From: Thermoanaerobaculia bacterium
GTDB taxonomy: Bacteria > Acidobacteriota > Thermoanaerobaculia > UBA5066
NCBI GenBank assembly: GCA_022071945.1
Contig: JAJVIN010000021.1
Coordinates: 32,452 to 96,451, forward strand
DNA: 64,000 nt
Direction of reading: 5' to 3'
In this document: positions 14,657 through 55,127 of the stretch, piece by piece
Layout of the letters: the number at the start of each line of letters is the position of its first letter
Position numbering within the stretch: the first letter of the stretch is position 1
The notes under the pieces: model-generated
What the model saw: only the letters and a program-made list of their open reading frames with translations
What the model was told of the DNA's origin: nothing
The model's database searches: none
Translations under genes and position numbers: made by a program

Positions 14657-17600
14657 GCCTGTCCGATCCCGAGCTTCTTCATCTCGTAGAGGAGCGCCTG
14701 CCTCGTGAGCCCCAGGAGCTTGGCGGCCGCCGTCCGGTTCCCCCGCGCCTCCAGGAGTGCGGCGAGGATCTCCTTCCGTTTCGCGTCCGCGACGGCCTTG
14801 AAGTAGCGCTTCTCCGTTGAAGGCGGAGAAGACTCCAGAGCCGCCTCTTCCTTCCGGACCCTCGAGGGCAGATGCGGGACGTCGATGACGTTTCCCGGCG
14901 AGGCCATGAGCCGGGCGGACTCCAGGGCCGCCATCAGTTCCCGGATGTTCCCGGGCCACGAGTACGTCATCAGAACCGTCTCGGCGCGAGGGGAAAGGCG
15001 CCAGGAGGGCGACAGGGCGCCGTCAATCAGCCGCGCCAGGTCCCTGGGCCGTCGGCGGAGGGGAGGCAGCTCGATCGTGACCCCCGCGATCCGGAAGTAG
15101 AGGTCCTGGCGAAACCGGTTCTGCCTCACGAGGCTCGCGAGATCCTGATGAGTGGCGGAGATCAGCCTGAAATCGGCTGTCCGGGTCCGCGTTTCGCCCA
15201 GCCTGCGGTACTCCTTCTCCTGCAAGAGCCGAAGGAGCTTGGCTTGCAAGGCGAGCGGAAGCTCGCCGATCTCGTCGAGGAAGAGGGTCCCCGAACCGGC
15301 CGTCTCGACGAGCCCGGCCCGGTCCTTCTCCGCTCCCGTGAACGCGCCTCTGGCATGTCCGAAGAGCTCGGACTCCAGCAGGGTGTCGGTCAGCGCGGCC
15401 ACGTTGAGGGCGACATTCGGCCCCGGACGGCCCGAGGCGCCATGAATCTCCCGGGCCAGGATCTCCTTTCCCGTGCCCGTCTCGCCCGTGATCAGGACGG
15501 GCATCGACGATGGCGCGACCCGCCGCGCGAGCTCGAAGGCCTTTTTCGTCTCTTCGTCCTCGCAGACGAACTCCCGGGAGGACCGCGGGCCGCCGGGATC
15601 GGCCCCACCGGAGGCGAGCGTGTGGGTCGAGTACTTTCTCGTCTCGAAATACCGTGACAGGGCCGGACATCCCGCCAGGCTCGCGGCCCGGGCTCCCTCC
15701 TCGAAAAAGACCCCGGCCCTCGCGAGCTCGAAGGCCGCCGGGAACCGGACGGCCCACTCCCAGAGGCGTTCCGCTCTCTCCAGGTCCTTCTTTCTGCTTC
15801 CTCTGACGAGGGTGATTCCCGACTCTTCCAGGGAGGGCACTTGACCGCTCTTGAAGGCGAGTTCCGTCATGAGCAGGCGTTTCTCGAGATCGAGGAGACT
15901 CGCCGTCTCGATCTCCCGCCGGACCGCCGCCGCCGGTGCGCCGGTCGGCGCGCCAAACGTGGTTGGCGCGCCAGCCGTGGTTGGTGCGCCAGCCGTGGTT
16001 GGCGCGCCAGCTACGGCTGGCGCTGCATCGATGAGGCTCGAGAGCCAGAGCCGGATGCGGCTCGTCTCGTTCTGCATCCGGTTGTCCGTGAGCTTGGCGG
16101 CCTCGAGCACGTGCTGCCTCGTTGCGTGCGGCTCTCGCCTGAGGAGAGACCCTCGCGCCTGAACGATCAGGATCTCCCGCCAGGCCGGATGCCCCGGCTG
16201 TTGACGGCCGGCCGAGGCTGCCCGCTGGAACAGGCCGGCACTCGCTTCCAGCTCGAGTTCGGTCAGGAGAATCGCCATCATGGTCGGGACGGAAAAGAGC
16301 CACTGATACTCGCGCCCGGGGACCCCGTCGAAGTCCAGGACTCTCTCGAGATCCCGCCTTGCCTCGGCCACGCAGCCCTCGCGGAAGAAGAGATCCCCCC
16401 TGTTCGCCAGCGCGGAGATGTAGCCGCCAGAGTCGCGAAGGGACACGAAGAGGGCCATCGATTCCTCGAGCTGCTGGCGCGCCTCCTCGAACCTTCCGAG
16501 GTGCATCAGCGAGCCACCGATGTCCAGGGCCGCCTTCGCCCGGATCCTGTCGGTCGTGGCGGACGCCTTCGCCAGCCGGAAGCACCCCTCCGCGCGAGAG
16601 TGCTCCCCGAGGTCCGAATACAGGTACCCCGACGTGAAGGCAAAATCGAGAGAGTTCTCGCCGGAGTTCTCGAGTCCGCCGCTCGCCGTGAGGGTGTCCA
16701 GAATGGATCGAGCCTCCGCGTATTCACCACACCGCGAGAGCGCCTCGGCGGCCGCCAGGAGCCACTCCACATCGTGGTCCTGGACCTCCCGCGGATGTGT
16801 CGAATCGAGGGACTTTCCACGGCTCTTCGAAACCAGTGCCAGCGCCTCGAGATTGCGATTCGCCTCGAGCAAGACCCTCATTTCGAAAAGGCGCCTTCGA
16901 GAGGCAGGAACAAGGGAAGCGATAGAGAGCGCCTTCTCCACGTGCCGGTAACGAGCGAGCAGCTTGCCGGCGCCCTCGACATGCGGGCTGGCGTTCTCGT
17001 CCAGAGTGCCCTCGAAGCAGGCGGCGGCTCGCGTGGCTCGTTCTCCATCGCCGAACCGGTCAGAGAGCACGAGGGCGCGCCAGGCCGAGCCGAGAACGGG
17101 ATCGGACTCAGGAGCGGCCCCCAGAAGGGCAAAAGCCCCTCGCCAGTCTTCCGCGTCGAAGAGGGCGCGAAAACGATCGCGAGCAGCCGGGAGGGCCGCC
17201 GGATCGAGCCTCATCGCGATCCTGAGCTTCTTGTCCGCAACCAGTCCCGAGCTCTGGACGCGTCCAAGGATTCCCTGCCTCTCGGTCCCGCCCATCGCCT
17301 TCTGCAGACTCTCGCGCGGAATGGAGCTCGAAAGCCGCAGATGCCCGCCGGGAACCTCCTCGAGAGTTCCTTCCTCGACGGACTCGGCGACAGAACCGGC
17401 CAGGGCCTCGGCCTCGCGGCCCGCCACGACGGCCAGCTCGGAGAGCGTGAACTCATCGTCGAGAACAGCGGCCGCCTTCAGGACCGGGTTCCGCCTGAAA
17501 CTGGGCGTGGCGGTCACCCCGCGAGCTCGCCGGCCGGTCCAGGAGAGGGACTCGAAGGCACTGACGAAACGGCCTGCCTCTCCCGCGGCTTTCTCGGAAA

Positions 17601-38454: not shown

Positions 38455-39123
38455 CTAGTCAGCGAAAAGGTCGAGGATGTCCGTCAGGGAATCGACGAGG
38501 TAATCGGGCCGGGCGGACTCAAGCTCCTCGCGAGACGACGAGCCGGTCGGCAGGACGGCGACCGGCATGCCGACCGCCCGGGCGGTTTCGACATCGATCG
38601 GCATGTCCCCGACAAAGAGACTGGAAGAGGGCGGAACACCCATTGCGCCGAGCGCGGCGACGACCATGGCGGGATCCGGCTTGGGCGGAAACTCGGGAGT
38701 CGGCCCGGCAATGACACGAAACCTCGGGGCGAGACCGAGCTCTTCCAGAAGCTGGATGGAGAACTGCAGGGGCTTGTTCGACGCCACGGCCAGGGGAACG
38801 CCGCGGCTGGCGAGATCCCGGGTCACCTGCTCCGCCCCGGGCAAGAGTTCGGTCATCTCGGGTCCGCTCCGGGCATAGCTCTTCCGGAACATGTCCACAC
38901 CCAGGGGAGCACGTTCGGGACCGAGAACCTTTCGCATGAGGGCTTCGAGACCATTCCCGACGAGCCGGCGGGTTTCTTCCCTGCCGATCGGCGGCTCGCC
39001 GAAAGCGGCGAGAACCTCGTTGAGCGAGAGATTGATGGCCGAGTAGGAATCGATCAGGGTGCCATCGAGGTCGAAGACACAACCCGAGAAGCGAGGCGAG
39101 CCGTTTCGCGGCTTCTCAGTCAT
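38455..39123 (-). CDS. HAD-superfamily hydrolase (phosphoglycolate phosphatase-like).
   Basis: Motif I DLDGTL and motif IV GD..D. The start is chosen at MTEKPRNG. The upstream extension in the track is unsupported. Confidence 0.75.
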   Translation of the reverse strand: MTEKPRNGSPRFSGCVFDLDGTLIDSYSAINLSLNEVLAAFGEPPIGREETRRLVGNGLEALMRKVLGPERAPLGVDMFRKSYARSGPEMTELLPGAEQVTRDLASRGVPLAVASNKPLQFSIQLLEELGLAPRFRVIAGPTPEFPPKPDPAMVVAALGAMGVPPSSSLFVGDMPIDVETARAVGMPVAVLPTGSSSREELESARPDYLVDSLTDILDLFAD

Positions 39124-42741: not shown

Positions 42742-43814
42742 CCGAACAGAGAAACGACGCCGGCTTTCTCGCCCCGCTCTCCAACGCGCAGAGCTTCGAG
42801 GCCCTGCGCCGGCTCCACGGTGTCATGATGGTCGAGGAGAAGTGGACCGACTGGGAGGCGACCGGGTTCTCCTGGTGGCCGGGCCGGCTGAGGCAGAGGC
42901 TTCACATCGAAGAGGTGGACTGGCGGGGATACCAGGCCCGGCGCCTGGTGGCGGAGACGGACCTCTACTCCGGAAGTCCCGGCGCGGCCGCGCTTGAGGG
43001 ATTCTGCGAGCTCTCGCGCTTTCCCCCGCTCAGTCATTTCGTGGTCGATCAGGACGCGAAGCGGACGGCTCTCAGGGCGCATCTCTTGCTCGCCGAGGCA
43101 TGGGAGGCCGAGATGGTCGCCCGTTTCTCGGTCGTGGCGATCTTGCAGGCGACCTTCGCGGAGCTCGGGGGCGAGGGCCTCGCCTCGCGCTTCGGTCTTG
43201 CGCTCGCCACGAGCCAGCACCCCGAGAGCGGCGAGAGAGAACACCCGGACGGTCTCCTGAGCCTGGCCGCGGCCGAGATCGTGCCCGCCGGCCGGGACGG
43301 ATCGGCCTGGAACACTCCGGAGGTCTTCGAGGAGGTCTCCGAGATCCTCGTGGATGCGGACGCCCGGGTGACATCGACGCGAGCCGGGCTCCTCTCGGCA
43401 CGCCTCCCCTCGCCCGAGCCCGGGGGCGACCGCTACGCGCCCCGTTCCTCGGCTCTCCTGCAGATCCAGTTCGAGGCGAACCACCCGGAGCTCGCGAACG
43501 GAGCCTGCCTGAGACTCTTCCTGCCTCACCACCTCACGGAGGCGGCGGGATCGCCCGCACTGACCGCCCTCACCTTGAACTCGCGAGAGATCGAGGGGGT
43601 GGACGCTCCCGCCTTCGGCTTCGGGGCCTGGTGCCTGGAGCACTCGATTCCCGAGGTCATCGAGTTCGCGGTGAAGCCTTCGCCCGCGCGGCTCTGCCAC
43701 GTGGTCTTCATCCCGAACTATCTCCACGGCGAGAGCATCTTGCCCCTCCTTCTCGAGGACGAGATCCTCAGGTCGGCCTGGGCGCTGGATGTCCTCGGGG
43801 AAACCCGGAAGTAG
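42738..43814 (+). CDS. Hypothetical protein (358 aa), translationally coupled to the PAS protein.
   Basis: Its GTG overlaps the upstream TGA as GTGA, and it runs in the coding-strand direction of the neighbouring genes. No motifs were recognised. Confidence 0.5.
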   Translation: MTEQRNDAGFLAPLSNAQSFEALRRLHGVMMVEEKWTDWEATGFSWWPGRLRQRLHIEEVDWRGYQARRLVAETDLYSGSPGAAALEGFCELSRFPPLSHFVVDQDAKRTALRAHLLLAEAWEAEMVARFSVVAILQATFAELGGEGLASRFGLALATSQHPESGEREHPDGLLSLAAAEIVPAGRDGSAWNTPEVFEEVSEILVDADARVTSTRAGLLSARLPSPEPGGDRYAPRSSALLQIQFEANHPELANGACLRLFLPHHLTEAAGSPALTALTLNSREIEGVDAPAFGFGAWCLEHSIPEVIEFAVKPSPARLCHVVFIPNYLHGESILPLLLEDEILRSAWALDVLGETRK

Positions 43815-47061: not shown

Positions 47062-47850
47062 CTACAGAACCTTCGCTTCGTCGCGGAGCAGGCGGAGGAG
47101 CTCCTCCGCGGCCTTGGCGGGGTCGTCCGCCGGCACGAGCTTGACGGCCTGACGGGCCGGGGGCAGCTCGAGCTTGGTCCAGCGCACGGGCGACTTGTCC
47201 CCGCTCATCGCGGCGGCATCCACACCCACCTCGGCGGGCTTCTTCACCGCGATCTGCTTCTTCTTGGCGGCCATGATGCCCTTGAGGGAGGCGTAGCGCG
47301 GCTCGTTGAGCCCCTTCTGCGCGCCGATCACGGCCGGCAGCGGGCACTCGACGACTTCCTTGGCCCCCTCGATCTCTCTCCAGGCAGTGACCGCACCGGC
47401 CTTCCACTCGATCTTCGTCACGAGGTTCACGTGCGGCAGGTCGAGGAACTCGGCCACCATCGGCACCATCACCTGGGCGTCGGTGCCAACGCCCTTGTTG
47501 CCGAGCCACACGACGTCGTACTTGAGCGTCTTGATCGCGCCCGCAAGCATCTGGGCCACGCCGAGGGAGTCAACATCCGCGATCCCTTCGGAGGCGATGC
47601 GGATCGCTTCGTCCGCTCCGCGCGCCAGGCACTCACGCAGACCGACATCGGCTCGAGCCGGACCGTACGTGACCACCGTGACCGTTCCCCCCTTGGCTTC
47701 CTTGGCCTTGATGGCCTCCTCCAGGGCGAACTCGTCATAGGGCGACACGATCCACTTGACGTCAGCCTCGTCGATCGACTTCCCATCGGAGCCGATCTTG
47801 ATCTTGGTTTCTGTATCCGGAACGTACGCTATGCAGACGACGTGATTCAT
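47062..47850 (-). CDS. etfB: Electron transfer flavoprotein beta subunit.
   Basis: The ETF-beta N-terminus MNHVVCIAYVPDTETKIKIGSDGKSID matches the family. Confidence 0.9.
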   Translation of the reverse strand: MNHVVCIAYVPDTETKIKIGSDGKSIDEADVKWIVSPYDEFALEEAIKAKEAKGGTVTVVTYGPARADVGLRECLARGADEAIRIASEGIADVDSLGVAQMLAGAIKTLKYDVVWLGNKGVGTDAQVMVPMVAEFLDLPHVNLVTKIEWKAGAVTAWREIEGAKEVVECPLPAVIGAQKGLNEPRYASLKGIMAAKKKQIAVKKPAEVGVDAAAMSGDKSPVRWTKLELPPARQAVKLVPADDPAKAAEELLRLLRDEAKVL

Positions 47851-47943
47851 CTCTGCTCCCTCTAGAAATTGACGCGAGACCCCGGACGGGGCCCGTGAAT
47901 CAAACTACCACGCTCCCGGGACGTCCGGCACAAAAAACCGTAG

Positions 47944-47957
47944 GAACCTCTCAGAAC
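47944..47957. promoter_or_regulatory. Candidate SOS (LexA) operator, GAAC-N6-GAAC direct repeat, upstream of the imuA-imuB-dnaE2 cassette.
   Basis: GAACctctcaGAAC lies 140 nt upstream of imuA in a locally AT-rich region. It resembles but does not exactly match the alphaproteobacterial/acidobacterial GTTC-N7-GTTC box. Confidence 0.3.
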
Positions 47958-48098
47958 GCCCGCAAATCCCTCCATTCCATTGATTTCCCCTATTTACTCC
48001 AATTTCTCTCTTTTCCCCGCACCCTTGACTTACGTCTTTTTTGCGACTAGCGTTAGTCAGGCGCAAATACGGATTCGTGCTCGAGGGGGGAAAGGATC

Positions 48099-49091
48099 AT
48101 GGAGGCTCTTCAGATGGTGGGGGCGAGGGAAGCAGGAGGAACGGGAAAAGCTGGCGAACGCGGCACGGCCGAGATCGCGGGAATGACCTCATCGGGGTGG
48201 CCAGGAGGGACGCCAGGCACGGCGGTGGTCGCACGGTTGAGGGCGGCTCTTCCAGACTCCCTCTCTTCCTTTCTTTCCCGGGGAACGGACCTCTTGCAGC
48301 GCAACCGGTACACCCGGTCAACCGTCTTGCCGACAAGGATTCCGGGGTTTGACGAAGTGCTGGGGGGCGGTTTGCCGAAGGGAGAGGTCGTCGAGATCAC
48401 CGGCTCTCGTTCCTCGGGCCGTTTTTCGCTCGTCCTGTCGCTTCTGGCCGCCGTGACGAGCCAGGGGAATTCCGCGGTTTTCATCGACTTGGGGGACAGT
48501 CTCGACCCGCGAGCCGTCCGGGCGGAGGGAGGGGATCCGTCCCGGCTCCTCTGGGTGCGGCCCCGGAAGTTCCGGGAGGCCCTGGTGGCGGCGGAGATCG
48601 TGGCGGCGACGGGGTTTTCGCTCGTCGTTCTCGACCTGGGGGTGGATCCGATCCGGCGCGGGCCCTTCCGGGAAGCGGCTCCCTGGCTCCGGCTGGCCCG
48701 GACGGTCCGGACGCACGACACGGCCTTCGTGATCCTCGGCGCCACGAGGGTGAGTGGACCGGCGGCGCGTCATGTCCTGTCGCTTGCGCGCCCCCGCTCG
48801 TTCTGGAAGATCGAGGCTCCTGCTCCCCCGCTCCTCGAGGGGCTGGCAACCGGTCTACTGGTCGAGAAGCACCCCGGGTCAGGGCCCGGGCTCTACCGGC
48901 GGATCCGCTTCCAGGTCCCCGAAGCTCTGACCCGGCCGGAGCGTCTCGAGCATGAGGAGCGTGGACGGGCGGCCGGCTCCGTTCCCGCGGTGGCGGCGGA
49001 GGCGCCGGTGCTTCGCAACCCGGAAAGCGCAGAGGGCGGAGCCCCGTCGAAAGCCGCGGCCGCCGTTCACCGGCGGGCAGTGGGGGCGTAA
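48099..49091 (+). CDS. imuA: ImuA-like RecA-fold SOS mutagenesis protein.
   Basis: RecA/KaiC-like P-loop context (IPGFDEVLGGGLPKGEVVEITGSRSSGRFS). It sits directly upstream of imuB and dnaE2. Confidence 0.75.
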   Translation: MEALQMVGAREAGGTGKAGERGTAEIAGMTSSGWPGGTPGTAVVARLRAALPDSLSSFLSRGTDLLQRNRYTRSTVLPTRIPGFDEVLGGGLPKGEVVEITGSRSSGRFSLVLSLLAAVTSQGNSAVFIDLGDSLDPRAVRAEGGDPSRLLWVRPRKFREALVAAEIVAATGFSLVVLDLGVDPIRRGPFREAAPWLRLARTVRTHDTAFVILGATRVSGPAARHVLSLARPRSFWKIEAPAPPLLEGLATGLLVEKHPGSGPGLYRRIRFQVPEALTRPERLEHEERGRAAGSVPAVAAEAPVLRNPESAEGGAPSKAAAAVHRRAVGA

Positions 49092-49102
49092 GGAGGGATC
49101 CC

Positions 49103-50677
49103 GTGGCGCCGCGCATCGCGTGTCTCTTTGTCCCGCTCTTTCCCCTGGCGGCGCGTTTACGCAGTGAGCCTGAGTTGCGCGACGAGGCCGTCGTCATCGT
49201 GGAGGGCAATGGCACGGCGGCCCACGTCGTGGCGGCCTCGAAAAAGAGCCGCAAGGCCGGGATCCAGCCGGGCATGACGCTCCCCCAGGCAAGGGCGCTC
49301 TTACCAAAGCTGGTGGCGCGCAGCCGGGACGCCGCCTGCGAGCGGGCCGCGGAGGAAGTTCTGACCGAGGTCGCGGGCCGCTTCACCCCCCGCTGGGAAG
49401 ACGCGGGGCAGGGAGTGGTTTACCTGGAACTCGGGCAGGCGGGGAAAGAGGACGTGAAAAAACGGGAGAAGCTCCTGGGAAGCGACCTCATTGCCTGTTG
49501 CGAGAAGGAGAGCCTGCCGGCGCGCTGTGGCATCGCCGCGAACAAGCTGGCGGCGCGGGTGGCGGCGGGACTCCCGGAGTCTCCCACGGTCATTCCAGCG
49601 GGCGAGGAGCCGGCGTTTCTGGCACCGCTCCCGCTCGACCGGCTGAGTCCGGAGATCGAGATCTCGGCGGTGCTTTCCCGCTGGGGGCTCTCGTCGATCG
49701 GAGACTTCGCGAAGCTCCCCGCCGCCGAGGTCGTGGCCCGTCTCGGGGAACCCGGCCGGGCGCTGCACGAATCGGCCCGGGGTATCGGCAGTCAGCCCTT
49801 TTTCCCCTCCGTGCCCCCGCCGCTCTTCTCCGAGGGGTTCGACATCGATTGGCCCGTCGTGACTCTCGAACCGTTCCTCGAGTTCGTCGAGGCTGCTCTC
49901 GAAAGGCTCTTGAAGCGCCTCAAGGCCGAGGCCCGAAGCTGCCGGGAGCTCGCCCTGGAAATGAGGCTCGACCCCTCTGGCAGCGACGCGCGGGCGCTGT
50001 CGCTCCCGGCCCCCACACAGGATCTGAAGACACTGAAAACCCTCGTGAAGCTCGAGCTCGAGGCCCGTCCGCCGAAGGCCCCGATCATCGGGTTCACCCT
50101 GTCTGCTCATCCGGACCGGCCCCGGATGGGGCAGCTGACGCTCTTCGGCCCGGTGGAGATCTCTCCCGACCAGCTCGCGACGGCTCTCGCGCGGCTGGCC
50201 GTCCTCGTGGGAGAGGGCCGGATCGGCTCCCCGGATCTCTTCAACGGCCACCTTCCCGAAGGCTTCGTCACCGAGGCGTACGACCCGCCGCCGGCCCCCC
50301 TCAGGCCCACTCCGGCCCGGAGCCGGGGACTTCTCTCCGCACGCGTTCTGCGCCCTCCCGTGGAGCTGGAAGTGTTAACGCAGGAAAAACCGGGCGGCTT
50401 CCGGCTGCTCTCGATCAAGCCACTTCCCGACAGCAAAGCCCTGCACACGGACACGACACCCCGGGAAACTGTCAAGCCGCCAGACGCCAAGGCCCTCGAC
50501 GCGTTACGCGGCACGGTGCTCGTCGCCTCGGGCCCCTGGCACCTCGAGGACGGCTGGTGGAGCGACCAGCCCGTCCGGCGGGCCTACTGGGACCTCGAGA
50601 TATCGGGCGGGACTCTCTGCCGGATCTTTCGAGACGAGACGAACGGCTGCTGGTTCGCGGATGGGATCTATGACTGA
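49103..50677 (+). CDS. imuB: ImuB, Y-family polymerase-like protein of the mutagenesis cassette.
   Basis: The DinB/UmuC-like N-terminus lacks the catalytic acidic triad context. It lies between imuA and dnaE2. Confidence 0.8.
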   Translation: MAPRIACLFVPLFPLAARLRSEPELRDEAVVIVEGNGTAAHVVAASKKSRKAGIQPGMTLPQARALLPKLVARSRDAACERAAEEVLTEVAGRFTPRWEDAGQGVVYLELGQAGKEDVKKREKLLGSDLIACCEKESLPARCGIAANKLAARVAAGLPESPTVIPAGEEPAFLAPLPLDRLSPEIEISAVLSRWGLSSIGDFAKLPAAEVVARLGEPGRALHESARGIGSQPFFPSVPPPLFSEGFDIDWPVVTLEPFLEFVEAALERLLKRLKAEARSCRELALEMRLDPSGSDARALSLPAPTQDLKTLKTLVKLELEARPPKAPIIGFTLSAHPDRPRMGQLTLFGPVEISPDQLATALARLAVLVGEGRIGSPDLFNGHLPEGFVTEAYDPPPAPLRPTPARSRGLLSARVLRPPVELEVLTQEKPGGFRLLSIKPLPDSKALHTDTTPRETVKPPDAKALDALRGTVLVASGPWHLEDGWWSDQPVRRAYWDLEISGGTLCRIFRDETNGCWFADGIYD

Positions 50678-50806
50678 GACGTCGAGTTCCTTCCCGGTGT
50701 CGCCTCCCGTCCAGGGGGAACGGCCTCGTGGGATTCGACACCTCGGACCTCGTGGGATTCAACACCACGAGCCTCGCAGGATCCAACGCCACGGGGAAGC
50801 TCTGGT

Positions 50807-51090
50807 AGCCCCCTCTTTTGTAAAGAGGGGGTTGGGGGAGTTAGAGCCCGCCCGCGAGCCTCACCCACACCGCCGGGCCGCGCTCCTCTTCCTGACACAC
50901 GCCACCAACCCAGCAGAGATTGACGTCAACCTCGCAGAGGCGCTGCTTCGTAGCCCGGCGATTCATCGCCGGGCGTTCGCACGCTTTTCTCCGAACCCCA
51001 AAAAAAAGAGGGCGCGAGGGAACCAAAGTCCAGCCCGGTCTTCCATTCGAGCTCTAACTCCCCCAACCCCCTCTTTACAAAAGAGGGGGC
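50807..51090. mobile_element. MITE-like non-coding element, copy 1. It has perfect 41-bp terminal inverted repeats (50807..50847 and 51050..51090) flanking a 202-bp core.
   Basis: AGCCCCCTCTTTTGTAAAGAGGGGGTTGGGGGAGTTAGAGC and its exact reverse complement. Each TIR contains an internal 10-bp hairpin. Confidence 0.6.
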
Positions 51091-51269
51091 TTTTCGGGCC
51101 GCTCCTGATTCACACCCCGCGGCTTTTCGGGCCGTTCCAGATCCACGCCCGTGGCTTTTCGGGCCGCCACAGATCCACGCCCGTAGCTTTTCGGGCCGCC
51201 ACAGATCCACACCCCACGGCTTTTCGAGCCGCCACAGATCCACGCCCCGCAGCTTTTCGGGCAGACGGA
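51088..51269. repeat. Array of 33-bp tandem repeats (about 5.5 copies in unit 1; a second array of about 3.5 copies lies at 51670..51790).
   Basis: GCTTTTCGGGCCGCCACAGATCCACGCCCGTGG variants sit head-to-tail with no spacers. Confidence 0.85.
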
Positions 51270-51386
51270 ATCTATGACTGAGACGTCGAGGTCCTCTCCG
51301 CTGCCGCCTCCCATCCAGGGAAAACGGGCTGGTGGGATTCAACACCACGGGCCTCGCAGGATTCAACGCCACGGGGAAGCTCTGGT

Positions 51387-51672
51387 AGCCCCCTCTTTTG
51401 TAAAGAGGGGGTTGGGGGAGTTAGAGCCCGCCCGCGAGCCCCACCCGCACCGCCGGGCCACGCTCCTCTTCCTGACACACGCCACCAACCCAGCAGAGAC
51501 CGACGTCAGCCTCGTAGAGGCGCTGCTTCGTAGCCCGGCGATTCATCGCCGGGCGTTCGCACGCTTTTCTCCGAACCCCAAAGAGAAAGGGGGAGCGAGG
51601 GAACCAAAGTCCAGCCCGGCCTTCCATTCGAGCTCTAACTCCCCCAACCCCCTCTTTACAAAAGAGGGGGCT
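51387..51672. mobile_element. MITE-like element, copy 2 (TIRs 51387..51427 and 51632..51672).
   Basis: Identical 41-bp TIRs. The core differs from copy 1 by a few substitutions and a small indel. Confidence 0.6.
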
Positions 51673-51806
51673 TTTCGAGCCGCTCCTGATTCACGCCCCG
51701 TGGCTTTTCGGGCCGTTCCAGATTCACACCCCGCGGCTTTTCGAGCCGCTCCTGATCCACAGCCCGTGGCTTTTCGGGCCGTTCACATCCCGGGGGCTTA
51801 CCCCTC

Positions 51807-54800
51807 ATGACTGAGCGCTTCCCTCCCACCCGCGACCTCTTCATGCCGGGAGACGCGACGAAGATCATCGGCCCCGGCGCCCGCAAGGAGAAGCTGCGCA
51901 ACCGCTCCTTCTCGCCCTCCGCACCCGCACCGGGAGCGCGGTATGTGGAACTGCACGCCGCCTCTGCCTTCTCCTTTCTCGATGGAGCCTCCGAGCCCGA
52001 GGACATCGTGGAAGCCGCCGCCGCCCTTGGTCTCCCCGCGGTCGCCCTCATCGACACGAACGGCGTCTACGGCGCCCCGCGCTTCTACAAGGCGGCGAAG
52101 AAGGCCGGGATCAGGGCTCTCGTCGGCGCGGAAGTCGTCCTGGACCCTTCTCCTTACATCCCTGCCGCTGCCGACACGCAGAAGCGCGGCCCGCTCGGCA
52201 TCGTTCCGCCTCCCCCGCCGCCGGGTCTCCCCCCCGCCCGCGTGACGCTCCTCGTCGAGAGCCAGCGCGGCTACCGCAACCTCTGCCGGCTCCTGACCCA
52301 GGGCGCCCTCGGCAAGCCCAAGGGCGAGGCCGCCGTCACCTGGCACGACATCGCCCACCACTCCGACGGGCTCCACCTCCTGACCGGCAGCGACGAGGGC
52401 CCCGTCGCGCGCACCCTCGCCCAGGAGGGGATCGACTCGGCCCGGCGTCTTCTCGAGCGGCTCTCCGCCCTCTTCCCCGATCGCTGTCACGTGGAACTCC
52501 AGCGGCACAACCGTCGCGACGAGGAGCACCGCAACCAGGCCCTCGTCTCCCTCGCCCGCTCGCTCAAGCTCCCCCTGCTCGCGACGAACGGCGTCCGGTA
52601 CGCACGGCGGGAAAAGCGGCCGCTCTTCGACATCCTGACCTGCATCCGGAACCACACGACGCTCGACGCCGCTGGGACCCTGCTCGACATCAACCGCGAA
52701 CGCCACATGAAGAACGCCTCCGAGATGGCGCTCCTCTTCGCCGACCTCCCCGAGGCCGTCGTCCATGGCGTCGAGCTTTCCGAGAGGCTCGACTTCACGC
52801 TCGCCAACCTCGGCTACCGCTTCCCCGAGTACCCGCTCCCGCCCGGAGACACCGCCGCTTCCCTCCTGCGCCGCCTCACGTGGGAAGCCGCGATGAGCCG
52901 CTTCCGCCCGCTTTCGGCCAAGGCCCAGGCACAGATCAACAAGGAACTCGCCCTCATCGAGAAGCTCGACCTCGCCGGCTACTTCCTCATCGTCTGGGAC
53001 ATCATCCAGTTCTGCAAGAGGAACGGGATCCTCGCGCAGGGACGCGGCTCGGCCGCCAACAGCGCGGTCTGCTACGCCCTCTCCATCACGGCCGTCGATC
53101 CGGTCAAGATGGACCTCCTCTTCGAACGCTTCCTCTCCGAGGAGCGGGGCGAGTGGCCCGATATCGACCTCGATCTCCCCTCCGGCGATGCCCGGGAGAG
53201 CGTCATCCAGTACGTCTACCGGCGCTACGGCTCGCACGGTGCCGGGATGACGGCCAACGTCATCACGTATCGCGACCGCTCCGCCGCCCGCGAGGTCGCC
53301 AAGTCTCTCGGCTTCTCCGCCGAGCAGGTCGACCGGCTCGCCAAGCACCTCGGCAAGTGGAGCTTCGGCGAGTTCCGCGACGGGTTGCGGAAGTTCCCGG
53401 AAGAGATGCGGGCCGCCGGATTCGACCCCGAAGACCTCCGAATCCGGCACTTCGAGACCTTCTGGAAGGAGATCCAGAACCTCCCCCGCCACCTCGGCCA
53501 GCACTCGGGCGGGATGGTCATCGCCATGGGGCGGCTCGACGAGGTCGTCCCGCTCGAACCCGCGGCGATGCCGGGCCGCAACGTCATCCAGTGGGACAAG
53601 GACGACTGCGCCGACCTAGGGATCGTCAAGGTCGACCTCCTCGGGCTCGGGATGCTCGGGGCGATCGCCGAGATGATCCCGACGATCCGGGAGCACGAGA
53701 AGGTCGACGTCGACCTCGCTCATCTCCGCATGGACGACCCGAAGGTCTTCCAGATGCTCAACGAGGCCGACACGGTGGGCGTCTTCCAGGTGGAAAGCCG
53801 TGCGCAGATGGCGTCGCTCCCCAGAAACGCGCCGAGGAACTTCTACGACCTCGTCATCCAGGTGGCCATCATCCGGCCCGGGCCCATCGTCGGCGGGATG
53901 GTCCACCCCTTCTTCGACCGCCGCCAGGGACGCGCCCCGGTCGAGTACCCGCACCCCTCGCTCGAACCCATCCTGGCCCGGACGCTCGGCGTCCCGCTCT
54001 TTCAGGAACAGCTCCTGAAGATCGCCATGGTCGCGGCGGGCTTCACCGGGGGCGAGGCGGAGGAGCTGCGGCGCGCGATGGGCTTCAAGCGTTCCTCCGA
54101 GCGGATGGCCGTCATCGAGAAGCGGCTGCGCGACGGGATGACGAACCGCGGCATCACGGGCGAGGCGCAGGAACAGATCGTCAAGTCGATCACCTCCTTC
54201 GCGCTCTACGGATTTCCGGAGTCCCACGCGGCGAGCTTCGCCCTCATCGCCTACGCGAGCTGCTACCTGAAGGCCCACCACCCCGCGGCGTTCCTGAAAG
54301 GGCTCCTCAATGCCTGGCCGATGGGCTTCTACCACCCGGCAACTCTCGTCAAGGACTCCCAGCGGCACGGCGTGACAGTCCTACCGATCGACGTCTCCCA
54401 CTCGGGCTGGATGTGCCGGATCGAGAAGGGAGCCGTGCGGCTCGGAATGAGGTTCTTGAAAGGCCTCCGGCAGGCCGCCGGGGAGCGAATCGCGAGGGAA
54501 GCTTCGTTCCGTCCCTTCGGAAGCACGCAAGAACTGGCGCGGCGCTGTGAACTCCACGAGGACGAACTCTCGGCCCTCGCCTTCTCCGGAGCGCTCGGAT
54601 CCCTCGGCCTGACGCGGCGTGAGTCGCTCTGGCAGGTGGCGGCGGTTTCCCGGCACCAGGGACCGCTCTTCGATTCCTCGGACGAGGAGATGGCGCCGTC
54701 CCCGCTCCCGGAGATGTCGTCCTTCGAGGAGACGGTCGCGGACTACACCTCCTCCGAGATCACGGCGGGACCGCATCTGATCGCCTACTACCGGAGGCAG

Positions 54801-55127
54801 TTCCGGGAGAAATCGATCTTCTCCGCGGAGGAGCTGACACGGCTCCCGGACGGCATGCGGGTCCGGACGGGAGGGGCGGTCGTCGTGAGGCAGCGGCCCG
54901 GGACAGCGAAAGGGTTCGTCTTTCTCTCACTCGAGGACGAGACGGGAATGGCCCAGGCGATCGTGAAGCCCGACATCTTTCGCGAGAACCGGGCGCTCAT
55001 CGTCGGGTCGCCAGGCCTCATCGTGGAGGGGCGGCTGCAGAAGACCGACGGGACGCTTTCCGTGAGGGCGGAGAAGTTCTGGCGGCTGCCGGACCTGCCA
55101 CAGATCCCGAGTCACGACTTCAGATGA
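51807..55127 (+). CDS. dnaE2: Error-prone DNA polymerase DnaE2 (ImuC).
   Basis: PHP domain (HAASAFSFLDGAS) and Pol III alpha catalytic core. The DnaE2-type C-terminus lacks tau-binding extensions. Confidence 0.9.
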   Translation: MTERFPPTRDLFMPGDATKIIGPGARKEKLRNRSFSPSAPAPGARYVELHAASAFSFLDGASEPEDIVEAAAALGLPAVALIDTNGVYGAPRFYKAAKKAGIRALVGAEVVLDPSPYIPAAADTQKRGPLGIVPPPPPPGLPPARVTLLVESQRGYRNLCRLLTQGALGKPKGEAAVTWHDIAHHSDGLHLLTGSDEGPVARTLAQEGIDSARRLLERLSALFPDRCHVELQRHNRRDEEHRNQALVSLARSLKLPLLATNGVRYARREKRPLFDILTCIRNHTTLDAAGTLLDINRERHMKNASEMALLFADLPEAVVHGVELSERLDFTLANLGYRFPEYPLPPGDTAASLLRRLTWEAAMSRFRPLSAKAQAQINKELALIEKLDLAGYFLIVWDIIQFCKRNGILAQGRGSAANSAVCYALSITAVDPVKMDLLFERFLSEERGEWPDIDLDLPSGDARESVIQYVYRRYGSHGAGMTANVITYRDRSAAREVAKSLGFSAEQVDRLAKHLGKWSFGEFRDGLRKFPEEMRAAGFDPEDLRIRHFETFWKEIQNLPRHLGQHSGGMVIAMGRLDEVVPLEPAAMPGRNVIQWDKDDCADLGIVKVDLLGLGMLGAIAEMIPTIREHEKVDVDLAHLRMDDPKVFQMLNEADTVGVFQVESRAQMASLPRNAPRNFYDLVIQVAIIRPGPIVGGMVHPFFDRRQGRAPVEYPHPSLEPILARTLGVPLFQEQLLKIAMVAAGFTGGEAEELRRAMGFKRSSERMAVIEKRLRDGMTNRGITGEAQEQIVKSITSFALYGFPESHAASFALIAYASCYLKAHHPAAFLKGLLNAWPMGFYHPATLVKDSQRHGVTVLPIDVSHSGWMCRIEKGAVRLGMRFLKGLRQAAGERIAREASFRPFGSTQELARRCELHEDELSALAFSGALGSLGLTRRESLWQVAAVSRHQGPLFDSSDEEMAPSPLPEMSSFEETVADYTSSEITAGPHLIAYYRRQFREKSIFSAEELTRLPDGMRVRTGGAVVVRQRPGTAKGFVFLSLEDETGMAQAIVKPDIFRENRALIVGSPGLIVEGRLQKTDGTLSVRAEKFWRLPDLPQIPSHDFR

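Follow-up and report, generated by a model that had tools for sequence, protein, structure and literature searches.

A tandemly duplicated palindromic repeat doublet, probably REP/REPIN-like, between imuB and dnaE2 in a Thermoanaerobaculia species

Introduction

Why are two adjacent genes of a mutagenesis operon separated, in one bacterial species, by more than a kilobase of repeated sequence? In the imuA-imuB-dnaE2 SOS mutagenesis cassette the imuB–dnaE2 junction is usually compact (PMC10421592, PMC4951493). A MAG of an uncultured Thermoanaerobaculia bacterium (Acidobacteria group) has the gene order and domain content of this cassette, but its imuB and dnaE2 lie 1,129 bp apart and the spacing is filled by two tandem repeat units. 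Here, we analyze these units within a stretch of 64,000 nucleotides (the window) and ask what they consist of, how they may have arisen and what they could mean for the operon.

Two classes of bacterial repeat offer a comparison. The REP/REPIN/BIME sequences include REPINs, whose arms are separated by tens of nucleotides, and the REPIN-RAYT systems have been described as vertically inherited and lineage-specific (Bertels and Rainey 2011, PMC3116915; PMC3337134). The bacterial MITEs include Chunjie of Geobacter uraniireducens, which is inserted in an operon, the Correia elements and the Rickettsia palindromic elements (PMC10969869).

Results

The cassette and its relatives

The first gene of the cassette, imuA (48114–49091, forward strand), has a Pfam RecA/KaiC match, and an identical protein is recorded as MCG3192939.1. 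It is followed by imuB (49103–50677, forward), a Y-family polymerase-like gene (Pfam IMS) whose product ends in ...ADGIYD before a TGA at 50675–50677 and is 100% identical to a protein from a Thermoanaerobaculia MAG (P0001). The third gene, dnaE2 (51807–55127, forward; MCG3192942.1), encodes an error-prone Pol III alpha paralogue with Pfam PHP, DNA_pol3_alpha, finger, HHH_6 and OB domains. Pfam recovers the three cassette proteins, ImuA (RecA-like), ImuB (Y-family) and the Pol III alpha paralogue, in this order on one strand. The promoter-like sequence TTGACT-N17-TAGCGT at 48026–48060 is overlapped by the palindrome GACTAGCGTTAGTC, at most a candidate LexA operator, and a look-up of the SOS operator GTTCN7GTTC revealed no enrichment.

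Several related Thermoanaerobaculia do not have dnaE2 next to imuB, and hence a single relative, L014 (66% ImuB identity), can be compared at this junction. It shares the ETF-imuA-imuB-dnaE2 synteny, but only 62 nt separate its imuB from its dnaE2, and DnaE2 aligns from residue 1 at L014:7623 (tblastn). Judged from this relative, the ancestral junction appears to be a 62-nt spacer and not the ATGA overlap that the initial annotation had supposed, and the insertion is a lineage-specific gain, absent from the sister lineage.

The structure is real and not an artefact of assembly. A second MAG, GCA_023151375.1, contains the same two-unit structure minus one 32-nt repeat, its unit 2 being nearly identical, and GCA_020845555.1 contains unit 1 with the beginning of unit 2. 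In addition, five independent short-read contigs break off 136–156 nt downstream of the imuB stop, at the point from which the two units are identical.

Anatomy of the two units

Both repeat finding and unit alignment confirm a composite insertion of two tandem units. Unit 1 (50657–51260, forward; direct repeats D2–D4 and unit alignment) starts within the last 21 nt of imuB, and unit 2 (51261–51806, forward) runs from a copy of the imuB tail (GCAGACGGAATCTATGACTGA, 51261–51281) through to the dnaE2 start. The length of 604 bp first given for unit 1 is retained, whereas the 537 bp given for the second becomes 533 bp when measured from start to start. Within each unit a 286-bp inverted-repeat element stands between a 24-nt hairpin repeat and a 32/33-nt array; these components are far above shuffle expectation and have no further copy in the window. 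The two units share blocks that are 83–95% identical, and taken as collinear blocks they are 82–100% identical (unit alignment). Their divergence varies from part to part (spacer 18%, core 5.6%, arms of the inverted-repeat element 0%). The junction between the units is a hybrid of the 33-mer and the imuB tail, and the sense strand of the whole spacer is C-rich (414 C versus 303 G).

The 24-nt repeat (GCCTCGTGGGATTCAACACCACGA), each copy of which folds into a 7-bp stem closed by a 9-nt loop (z = -1.6), is present three times in unit 1 (50723–50793, forward; TRF). A triple repeat had been ascribed to both units, but the alignment of unit 2 has a 24-nt gap and one copy fewer (two copies, 51327–51374, forward). 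The 32/33-nt array of unit 1 starts from the outer edge of the right arm (GGCTTTTCGG...) and has 5.4 copies (51088–51262, forward; TRF), one more than in GCA_023151375.1, and that of unit 2 has 3.4 copies of 33 nt (51669–51781, forward; TRF). A derivation of the 33-mers from the end of imuB, suggested by the apparent resemblance of their consensus to it, found no support: the likeness is no better than chance (local score 6 versus a shuffle mean of 5.9), and 90% of genic windows reach the same score.

The 9-mer ATGACTGAG and the duplicated imuB tail

The three copies of ATGACTGAG reported in the initial annotation are present, with the first two starts corrected from 50669 and 51273 to 50670 and 51274; their interpretation as target-site duplications does not hold. 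Copy 1 (50670–50678, forward) consists of the imuB codons (T)AT GAC TGA with an embedded ATG; it encodes I-Y-D-stop, and the same 9-mer ends imuB in the insertion-free L014. Copy 2 (51274–51282, forward) lies within the co-duplicated imuB tail (unit alignment), and copy 3 (51807–51815, forward) is the true start of dnaE2 (MTE...), homologous to GTGTCTGAG in L014 (tblastn). The 9-mer is separated from the inverted arms by 128 nt on the upstream side and by 182 nt on the downstream side, and it is also found at another gene junction in the window. Because the present imuB stop is the second TGA inside ATGACTGAG (50675–50677), the overlap there is 8 nt and not ATGA, which amends the earlier account of this stop.

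The 21-nt tail copy (51261–51281) has three differences from imuB. All three are third-position changes, as had been noted, but one of them (GAT/GAC) is a polymorphism of imuB itself, GAC being found at this site in both the second MAG and L014. Only two of the three changes belong to the tail copy.

Open frames across the units

ORF1 (50670–51281, forward; 203 codons; GenBank hypothetical protein MCG3192941.1) begins at an ATG inside the imuB stop region and ends in ...FRADGIYD and a TGA in the second ATGACTGAG. ORF2 (51274–51810, forward; 178 codons) is an open frame whose TGA overlaps the dnaE2 ATG as ATGA. The differences between them are spread over the codon positions (7/5/7), with 15 nonsynonymous and 4 synonymous; their GC3 is 0.62–0.63, compared with 0.78–0.90 in the neighboring genes; and a Pfam search of both found no match. 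The frames have no coding signature and are under no coding constraint, and the annotated protein MCG3192941.1 is almost certainly not a gene.

Arms, cores and folding

Element 1 comprises a left arm (50807–50850, forward), formed by the hairpin CCCCCTCTTTTGTAAAGAGGGGG followed by TTGGGGGAGTTAGAGC, a core of 197 nt (50851–51047) and a right arm (51048–51091, reverse). Element 2 has the corresponding left arm (51387–51430, forward), a core of 198 nt that is 94.4% identical to core 1 by unit alignment (51431–51628) and a right arm (51629–51672, reverse). The arms, delimited by repeat finding, are 44 nt long and 98% complementary in both elements, and a 39-nt stretch is identical in all four. Between the units the arms show 0/88 mismatches and the core 11/197, a contrast with a chance of about 0.006 at the core rate. 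There are no direct repeats flanking the arms (left flank ...AAGCTCTGGT, right flank TTTCGGGCCG...). No copy of the roughly 200-nt core was found elsewhere: BLAST against 130 loci matched only the arms, and HMMER found no other copy of the translated core among 1.84 billion proteins.

The whole elements fold with free energies of -161 and -184 kcal/mol (z = -11 and -10), but beyond the long arm stems nothing in the folding stands out (z -0.15 to -2.3). The right-arm hairpin is followed by CUUUUC and resembles a weak terminator; a scan of the spacer found no intrinsic terminator by its criteria, and a promoter scan of both strands found no sigma-70-like site. Antisense to the operon, each core contains a motif like Acido-Lenti-1 (RF01687; Weinberg et al. 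2010, PMC2864571), an RNA family of Acidobacteria or Lentisphaerae whose function is not known. The motif in core 1 (50928–50973, reverse) scores 27.8 bits (E = 5e-4) and that in core 2 (51508–51553, reverse) 36.8 bits (E = 1.7e-6), against a gathering score of 37 that both miss, the second being borderline. The alignment spans model positions 1–46 with both stems paired, and the two differences within the motif (a loop base, and a G-C to G-U pair) leave both hairpins intact. The two hairpins, the conserved GGCUA linker and the phylum, Acidobacteriota, all agree with the family (PMC2864571), and differences from the consensus are compensatory; unlike the known family, the motif here lies antisense in an operon spacer, inside a foldback element, and scores below the gathering threshold.

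A hairpin module dispersed across phyla

The arms belong to a dispersed family, as matches in GTDB genomes, metagenomes and viral contigs confirm. The shared module, CCCCCTCTT-loop-AAGAGGGGG-GGGGGAG, is extragenic and crosses phyla; at its full 45–60 nt it reads (TCCGAAG)-CCCCCTCTTT-loop-AAAGAGGGGG-TTGGGGGAGTTAGAGC and includes a 23-nt hairpin. Only the 44-nt arm is dispersed, not the core. A 21-mer of the arm occurs at 8 loci in GTDB genomes of unrelated phyla and the 23-mer hairpin at 117 metagenome loci, which together represent 45 distinct contexts (GC 0.33–0.67); the 23-mer is also present in 14 viral contigs. Acidobacteriota, Desulfuromonadota, Syntrophia, Patescibacteria and phages have the module in common; one metagenome (WBZQ01) has it on several contigs, and a sister MAG has a solo copy at a different locus (L056, 93% over 60 nt).

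The module typically lies tens of nucleotides from the ends of the flanking ORFs. Its neighbors are ordinary housekeeping genes, and no transposase or RAYT gene was seen flanking the 45 distinct loci. Its arrangements are single copies, inverted pairs and tandem arrays: three pairs stand 143–148 nt apart without flanking duplications (L042, L075, L083), and two tandem arrays include flanking sequence, one with a period of 179 nt (L121) and one of three 76-aa units (P0136). The cores of the three pairs are unrelated to the present one, and the other arm-bracketed elements contain no Rfam motif. Compensatory variants occur in the stem, namely a T-A/A-T swap at its top and CCTCCCCTT/AAGGGGAGG in neighboring copies. 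None of the 45 other distinct loci is at an imuB or dnaE2 junction, and with a core that has no other copy in anything searched, this speaks against the proposal of a MITE that prefers this site.

Discussion

We consider it probable, with moderate confidence, that the region is a REP/REPIN-like palindromic repeat doublet, tandemly duplicated with its flanks in a short imuB–dnaE2 spacer of one Thermoanaerobaculia species. The spacer looks like an ordinary REP/MITE-type cluster, and neither like a new site-specific mobile element nor like a demonstrated regulator. The module has a palindromic core, is dispersed extragenically among unrelated genes and forms inverted doublets and tandem clusters. 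As in REP/REPIN systems (PMC3116915; PMC3337134), where the extragenic palindromic unit measures 20–60 nt, it occurs as singles, as inverted doublets forming long hairpins and as ordered tandem arrays of near-identical doublets with their flanks; target-site duplications are likewise missing, and conservation is higher in the arms than in the sequence they enclose. The resemblance to MITEs (PMC10969869) lies in the long terminal inverted repeats, the small size (286 bp), the non-coding and transposase-free sequence (no Pfam match), the stable folding and the position between operon genes, none of which has been removed; a reading frame through the element is also found in the Rickettsia elements and in some ERIC and BOX elements. 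Unlike MITEs, however, the present element has no direct repeats at its arms, the 9-mer that resembled a target-site duplication being host coding sequence; it also has no known parent IS and, among 130 loci and 1.84 billion proteins, no dispersed copies that share its core.

We infer an order of events, a mobilization of the module in trans and an effect on expression as follows. Two inverted module copies, mobilized by a trans-acting RAYT or IS200/IS605-type enzyme that leaves no duplication, would have come to bracket about 200 nt of unique sequence and so produced a 286-bp foldback with the look of a MITE. Local replication slippage may then have generated the adjoining 24-nt and 33-nt arrays, before one tandem duplication on a larger scale, about 600 bp long, took in the entire block and its flanks, probably via recombination between the imuB tail and a 33-mer at the short homology TTCG(C/G)G. 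The duplicated segment would have had its left end 21 nt within imuB, so that a copy of the imuB tail with ATGACTGAG came to lie between the units. The effect on the operon would most likely be neutral to mildly modulating. Two stems of about -160 kcal/mol have to be carried by the operon mRNA. Each unit keeps an open frame, from the ATG within the preceding stop region to the next start codon, and for this reason ribosomes could still reach dnaE2.

Some observations fit a REP/REPIN origin less easily. Classic REPs number hundreds per genome, whereas here the copy number appears low, with no other module in the 64 kb. The distance of about 200 nt between the arms exceeds that in described REPINs, the hairpin is identical across phyla and extends to viral contigs while REP families are normally lineage-specific, no RAYT gene was seen next to any of the 45 loci, and the array lies inside an operon and includes a gene end. 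The uneven divergence of the units calls for gene conversion or selection in addition to a single duplication, and the Acido-Lenti-1-like motif and the uninterrupted frames, here treated as incidental, could mean function.

Several other explanations have to be weighed. The initial annotation's model, a non-autonomous MITE that targeted ATGACTGAG at this junction and inserted twice, draws on the long arms, the small size, the lack of a transposase, the dispersal of the arm family and the threefold 9-mer. It is largely refuted and now very unlikely: the 9-mer does not flank the arms and pre-exists in the insertion-free relative, what is repeated where the units meet is a 21-nt piece of imuB and not a short target duplication, direct repeats flank neither these arms nor the three other pairs, whose cores differ, and no other copy is at imuB or dnaE2. 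Elements that integrate into the 3' ends of genes leave a repeated gene tail, and each unit might be such a site-specific element carrying its own imuB 3' end as an attP-like site, which would keep imuB intact and yield attL/attR repeats. The 21-nt tail at the distal end of unit 1, with differences that are all synonymous, has this appearance, but these changes are not significant: once the imuB polymorphism is set aside, the chance for the two that are left is about 1 in 9. At its distal end unit 2 has just 9 nt in common, which are the start of dnaE2 itself, no integrase lies in or near the units, and no free or relocated unit copy was found among the loci and proteins searched; we regard such an origin as highly improbable. 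An artefact or genuine coding sequence is scarcely credible. The region is indeed repetitive, all the assemblies are from short reads and ORF1 is annotated as a hypothetical protein; nevertheless, three independent MAGs agree, the five contig breakpoints fit two diverged copies, and units that differ by 5–18% for that reason assemble separately. Coding genes are made improbable by GC3, by the nonsynonymous-to-synonymous ratio and by a search of 1.84 billion representative proteins that found no homologue.

Two further readings are functional. Translation may be relayed through the units as junk ORFs, from the imuB end to the ATG in ATGACTGA, through ORF1 to the next ATGACTGA, and through ORF2 to its own TGA, which overlaps the dnaE2 ATG. 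Translational coupling would thereby be kept and 1.1 kb of C-rich RNA shielded from Rho, and for this reason the insertion would be tolerated or its frames selected. Such a relay, although compatible with a REP/REPIN origin, is fairly unlikely. In its favor, both frames are open, as are only 7% of dinucleotide shuffles per unit; they remain open in different frames after a poly-A indel; with the 32-nt deletion in the other MAG, ORF1 shifts frame yet reaches the next ATGA; and the insertion-free relative has a 25-codon mini-ORF that begins at the same ATGACTGA and whose TGA overlaps GTGTCTGA, the dnaE2 start. But the units are homologous and so are not independent trials, the 33-mers have no stop in any of the three sense frames, apart from a TGA that the CTCCTGAT variants contain in one of them, and ATGACTGAG, whatever the phase, produces either a stop or an in-frame fusion, which leaves frame openness alone as informative. 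There is also no peptide-level constraint, only one relative is comparable, and the stems would impede ribosomes. It is quite unlikely that the spacer acts as regulatory RNA, either through a minus-strand Acido-Lenti-1-type small RNA or through stems that serve as RNase III sites, stabilizers or attenuators and set the dnaE2:imuB ratio. The RF01687 matches at the same place in both cores, their intact hairpins, the strong folding of the whole elements, the CUUUUC tract and the perfectly conserved arms are consistent with it; the scores below threshold, the unremarkable folding outside the arms, the scans for promoters and terminators and the other arm-bracketed elements without an Rfam motif speak against it. 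That both hold together, in a horizontally spreading palindromic element with an antisense-RNA cargo and a ribosome relay that forms a new control point of the SOS mutasome, is decidedly unlikely. If true, the module would be an undescribed one whose inverted pairs enclose a variable cargo of about 145–200 nt, here an Acido-Lenti-1-type antisense RNA, and tandem amplification would have made a chain of stop-start-overlapping frames from imuB to dnaE2.

Read as a tandemly duplicated REP/REPIN-like doublet, the locus would show cleanly, in nature, how a REP/MITE-type foldback can be amplified within an operon and take part of the upstream gene along. Its importance would grow if the insertion changed the amount of DnaE2 relative to ImuB, because this ratio bears on stress-induced mutagenesis, or if the cross-phylum hairpin module were a single mobile family, since REP-like repeats are generally thought to be lineage-bound. 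It also carries a warning for annotation, a hypothetical protein having been called here across repeat DNA.

Structure of the imuB–dnaE2 Spacer

Pfam searches identify imuA (48114–49091), imuB (49103–50677, with its stop TGA at 50675–50677) and dnaE2 (51807–55127, ATG at 51807). ImuB is 100% identical to a protein from a Thermoanaerobaculia (Acidobacteriota) MAG, and the database records are MCG3192939 for ImuA, MCG3192941 for a 203-codon ORF in the spacer and MCG3192942 for DnaE2. The 1,129 bp from the imuB stop to the dnaE2 ATG are made of two collinear tandem units (unit 1, 50657–51260; unit 2, 51261–51806). From 5′ to 3′, each contains a copy of the imuB end (GCNGAYGGNATCTATGACTGAG), a spacer of ~45 nt, a 24-nt hairpin repeat present three times in unit 1 and twice in unit 2, a foldback element of 286 bp whose 44-nt inverted arms enclose a core of 197–198 nt, and an array of 32/33-nt repeats (5.4 copies in unit 1 and 3.4 in unit 2). 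An identical 39-mer is common to all four arms; a search across the 64-kb window found no further copies of the unit components outside the locus. A tRNA derivation of the 24-mer was rejected when ARAGORN gave no match. The 33-mers had been said to resemble the imuB 3′ terminus, a similarity that proves to be at chance level. The array starts precisely where the right arm has its outer end, and the CCGAAAAGCC flank has GGCTTTTCGG as its reverse complement, which suggests that the array arose by slippage seeded at the element's edge.

Elsewhere in the window, an 18-nt tandem repeat (GGTTGGCGCGCCAGCCGT, ~4 copies at 15943–16014) has a GGCGCGCC palindrome in each copy. A gene for a putative endonuclease of the Uma2 family (PF05685; 55140–55766) starts 12 nt past dnaE2, a position that it also occupies in L016 and L017, two further assemblies of the species.

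The Two Units and Their Occurrence in Other Strains

The components of the two units differ in how well they have been preserved: identity between units is 86% in the imuB tail, 82% in the spacer, 93% in the 24-mers, 94.4% in the core (11 mismatches in 197 positions), about 81–93% in the 33-mers where these are alignable, and 100% in the arms (0 mismatches in 88). At the core's rate of change, the chance of 88 identical arm positions is ~0.006, so their identity has been maintained, whether through selection or through gene conversion between the four arm copies. At the novel joint (...AGCTTTTCGGGC|AGACGGAATCTATGACTGAG) a TTCG(C/G)G microhomology joins a 33-mer to the imuB tail, an arrangement that fits a single tandem duplication of ~600 bp with its left end 21 nt inside imuB. 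Since the divergence between units is 5.6–18%, versus 0.3% between strains, this duplication is long older than the strains sampled.

The composite insertion itself is real and reproducible, with the same structure found in other MAGs. One of these (L016, GCA_023151375.1) has the same two units, the only differences being one SNP in the imuB tail and one 32-nt repeat fewer; another (L138, GCA_020845555.1), 99.4% identical over 11 kb, contains unit 1 and the beginning of unit 2, where its contig ends. Different sequencing runs yielded five short-read contigs that all end 136–156 nt past imuB, the point at which the units become identical and a de Bruijn graph must branch, and a sixth begins 59 nt upstream of dnaE2, within the 33-mer array. 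Together these loci rule out the suspicion that the tandem duplication is an assembly artefact. A stronger-than-usual conservation of the insertion among strains was considered and rejected, the 0.3% divergence being that of the local background (~0.4–0.6%). Against a background of 0–5 mismatches per 500-nt bin, the bin at 52000–52500 has 34 mismatches or indels relative to L016 in a low-complexity DnaE2 insert, and the DnaE2 of L016 is 11 aa longer than that of the window; relative to L138, two imuB stretches in 49000–50500 have 15 and 10 mismatches per 500 nt.

The Ancestral Junction

Only one relative has dnaE2 adjoining imuB, the locus L014 (GCA_016277765.1), which has the same ETF–imuA–imuB–dnaE2 synteny and identities to the window of 66% for ImuB and 79% for DnaE2. 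Its imuB likewise terminates in ...GCGGACGGGATTTATGACTGAG, followed by a 62-nt spacer and a dnaE2 that starts with GTGTCTGAG, the first 12 residues of which align to the window's MTERFPPTRDLF. Three further ImuB homologues (~59% identity) have no dnaE2 adjoining imuB. In more distant Thermoanaerobaculia (L015, L135, L136 and L137) imuA–imuB is without dnaE2 downstream, so the cassette is often split in this group; the genes that follow are a PIN/VapC-type pair with a tyrosine integrase, a glyoxalase, or MarC. Judged from the L014 junction, the ancestral arrangement was a short spacer and not the ATGA overlap of imuB and dnaE2 proposed in the initial annotation. Nor do the imuB stop and the ATG overlap as ATGA in the window, where the stop is the second TGA of the 9-mer ATGACTGAG and the overlap with the embedded ATG is 8 nt.

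This 9-mer had been read as a target-site duplication. It does occur three times at the locus, at 50670, 51274 and 51807, the first two being one base away from the positions originally assigned. By comparison with L014, however, the copy at 50670 is the conserved last codons of imuB and that at 51807 is the start of dnaE2 itself; the copy at 51274 is part of a 21-nt duplicate of the imuB tail. The distance from ATGACTGAG to the inverted arms, 128 nt on the upstream side and 182 nt on the downstream side, rules out the 9-mer as a target-site duplication of these arms. The window contains five copies versus 0.24 expected, one of the others lying at another ATGA stop/start gene junction (39115–39123, minus strand) and one within an ORF or at its start (43029–43037, minus strand). 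The three differences between the imuB tail and its copy are, as first described, synonymous, but one of them (GAT/GAC) is a polymorphism of imuB itself, since GAC occurs in both L016 and L014, and for the remaining two, both at third codon positions, the probability by chance is ~1 in 9.

A Dispersed Hairpin Module

A BLAST comparison of both units with 130 loci gave matches to the arms only: the arms are dispersed, and the core has no match there. A 21-mer of the arm matches eight loci in the species-representative genome set, in hosts as unrelated as Pelobacter, Candidatus Doudnabacteria, Patescibacteria, Syntrophaceae and a deltaproteobacterium. All eight contain the module CCCCCTCTT, a variable 3–5-nt loop, AAGAGGGGG and then TTGGGGGAGTTAG. 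The window's exact 23-nt hairpin, loop included, is present in 117 metagenome loci, which when pooled with the eight genome loci represent 45 distinct genomic contexts (GC 0.33–0.67), and also in 14 viral contigs. The module is carried by L001–L008, L018–L134 and L139–L152, and in the window at 50809–50847 and in three further copies. Its tails are of two types, GGGGGAGTTAG(AGC) and GGGGGAGATTT. Twelve high-GC loci share 45–60 nt with the window arm at 93–100% identity, extended outward by TCCGAAG; one of them (L056) comes from the same MAG as the insertion-free L014, so the sister lineage also has the module family, at another site.

The modules are extragenic, typically tens of nucleotides from the ends of flanking ORFs, and the genes next to them are unremarkable ones, among them ferrochelatase, MFS transporters, response regulators and methyltransferases. 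Among 78 flanking ORFs there was no transposase or RAYT, nor any transposase enrichment; no other module locus is an imuB or dnaE2 junction; scans of high-GC and low-GC loci found no Rfam family for the hairpin; and a literature search found no paper containing the arm sequence. A role of the GGGGGAG tail as the Shine–Dalgarno sequence of a downstream gene was rejected (a long-ORF start within 60 nt in 13 of 45 contexts vs. 39% at random positions). Several viral copies have an ATG immediately after the tail (GGGGGAGTTATG) and an outer stem formed with the upstream partner TAACGCCCCC. The form of the module (CCCCCTCTT–loop–AAGAGGGGG, 1–5 nt, GGGGGAG, TTAG or ATTT) is near base-for-base the same across phyla and viral contigs, an identity that is a loose end in our interpretation.

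Origin of the Insertion

The arrangements of the module bear on the class of the element. Solo copies occur at L056, L073, L097, L112, L117, L123 and L128, and L113 is a plain long hairpin without a tail. Inverted pairs occur at L042 (1339–1566, core 146 nt), L075 (3277–3502, core 143 nt) and L083 (3009–3240, core 148 nt), all from one metagenome; they are built like the window element, with TCCGAAG–hairpin–TTGGGGGAGTTAGAGC, 143–148 nt and the mirror image. None of these pairs has flanking direct repeats, and neither BLAST nor global alignment with shuffle controls detected core similarity among them or with the window core, which rules out a common core among arm-bracketed elements; that the other doublets' cores are near-equal in length yet unrelated in sequence is a further loose end. 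In low-GC contigs the module forms tandem arrays whose period takes in flanking sequence, as at L121 (693–1307), where three 179-nt units lie downstream of a gene. Each L121 unit reads hairpin–GGGGGAGATTT...AAATCTCCCC–hairpin followed by a terminator-like CTTTTTT, the architecture of the window's units in miniature. The predicted protein P0136 has three 76-residue tandem units, each with the same hairpin translated; no contig carrying it was matched.

REPs and REPINs are described as occurring singly, as inverted doublets and as ordered tandem clusters "including the flanking sequences" (Bertels and Rainey, PMC3116915), and the window's module family likewise occurs in all three forms. A classical MITE (criteria in PMC10969869) fits less well, for tests here revealed neither flanking duplications nor shared internal sequence; a MITE with a preference for this site, one of the two options of the initial annotation, is further contradicted by the 45 contexts, none of which is an imuB or dnaE2 junction. 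The observation made in that annotation stands without its target-site duplications, ATGA ancestor, site-specific MITE or imuB-derived 33-mers. The best-supported reading is a REP/REPIN-like palindromic doublet, flanked by slippage arrays and duplicated with its flanks and the imuB end. In one Thermoanaerobaculia lineage, such a doublet would have entered the imuB–dnaE2 spacer and become flanked by arrays from local slippage; a tandem duplication would then have copied it along with the flanks and the terminal 21 nt of imuB.

Open Frames and Expression Signals

Each unit is spanned by an open frame. ORF1 (50670–51281) opens at the ATG within the imuB stop region and ends after 203 codons in ...FRADGIYD* on the next ATGACTGA; ORF2 (51274–51810) runs for 178 codons from the ATG of the second ATGACTGA to a TGA that overlaps the dnaE2 ATG. 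There is strong evidence against these frames as real genes. Their differences are spread 7/5/7 over the codon positions (15 nonsynonymous, 4 synonymous), their GC3 is 0.62–0.63 versus 0.78–0.90 in neighboring genes, and they match no Pfam domain. A HMMER search of 1.84 billion representative proteins with ORF2 gave three hits: ORF1, P0136 (matched only across the arm) and a weak match in low-complexity sequence. Neither frame encodes a conserved protein. From its GC3 of 0.62, its substitution pattern and its absence of homologues, the hypothetical protein MCG3192941.1 that GenBank places at 50670–51281 is most likely a spurious gene call over repeat DNA.

The openness of the frames is nonetheless mildly unusual, as, for each unit, a frame stays open in only 7% of dinucleotide shuffles, and in L016 the frames are still open despite a frame-shifting 32-nt deletion. 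The insertion-free L014 has a 25-codon mini-ORF (7553–7630), from an ATG inside imuB's ATGACTGA to a TGA overlapping dnaE2's GTGTCTGA start, which may be a translational-coupling bridge. For these reasons we retain as a minority reading that a relay of translated junk frames would keep imuB and dnaE2 coupled and protect 1.1 kb of C-rich RNA against Rho. However, the two units are not independent, most 33-mers are stop-free in every sense frame, and ATGACTGAG gives a stop or an in-frame fusion whatever the phase.

The minus strand of each core matches the Acido-Lenti-1 RNA motif (RF01687), at 27.8 bits in core 1 (50928–50973) and 36.8 bits in core 2 (51508–51553), versus a gathering score of 37, and an Rfam scan of the whole window gave nothing at gathering score. 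This motif was described from Acidobacteria and Lentisphaerae as probably a non-coding RNA, its function unknown (PMC2864571); it is absent from the other arm-bracketed elements. Its antisense occurrence together with uninterrupted frames is another loose end. The foldbacks are predicted to be very stable (−161 and −184 kcal/mol; z = −11 and −10). A regulatory role of the region can only be inferred, because no sigma-70-like promoter was found on either strand of 47800–52200, no terminator in the spacer satisfied the scan, predicted folding outside the arms is unremarkable (z = −0.15 to −2.3) and ARAGORN found no tRNA-like gene in the region. The window shows no enrichment of GTTCN7GTTC, the LexA box of alphaproteobacterial type. 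Upstream of imuA, at 48026–48070, a promoter-like TTGACT-N17-TAGCGT overlaps the palindrome GACTAGCGTTAGTC, a candidate operator.
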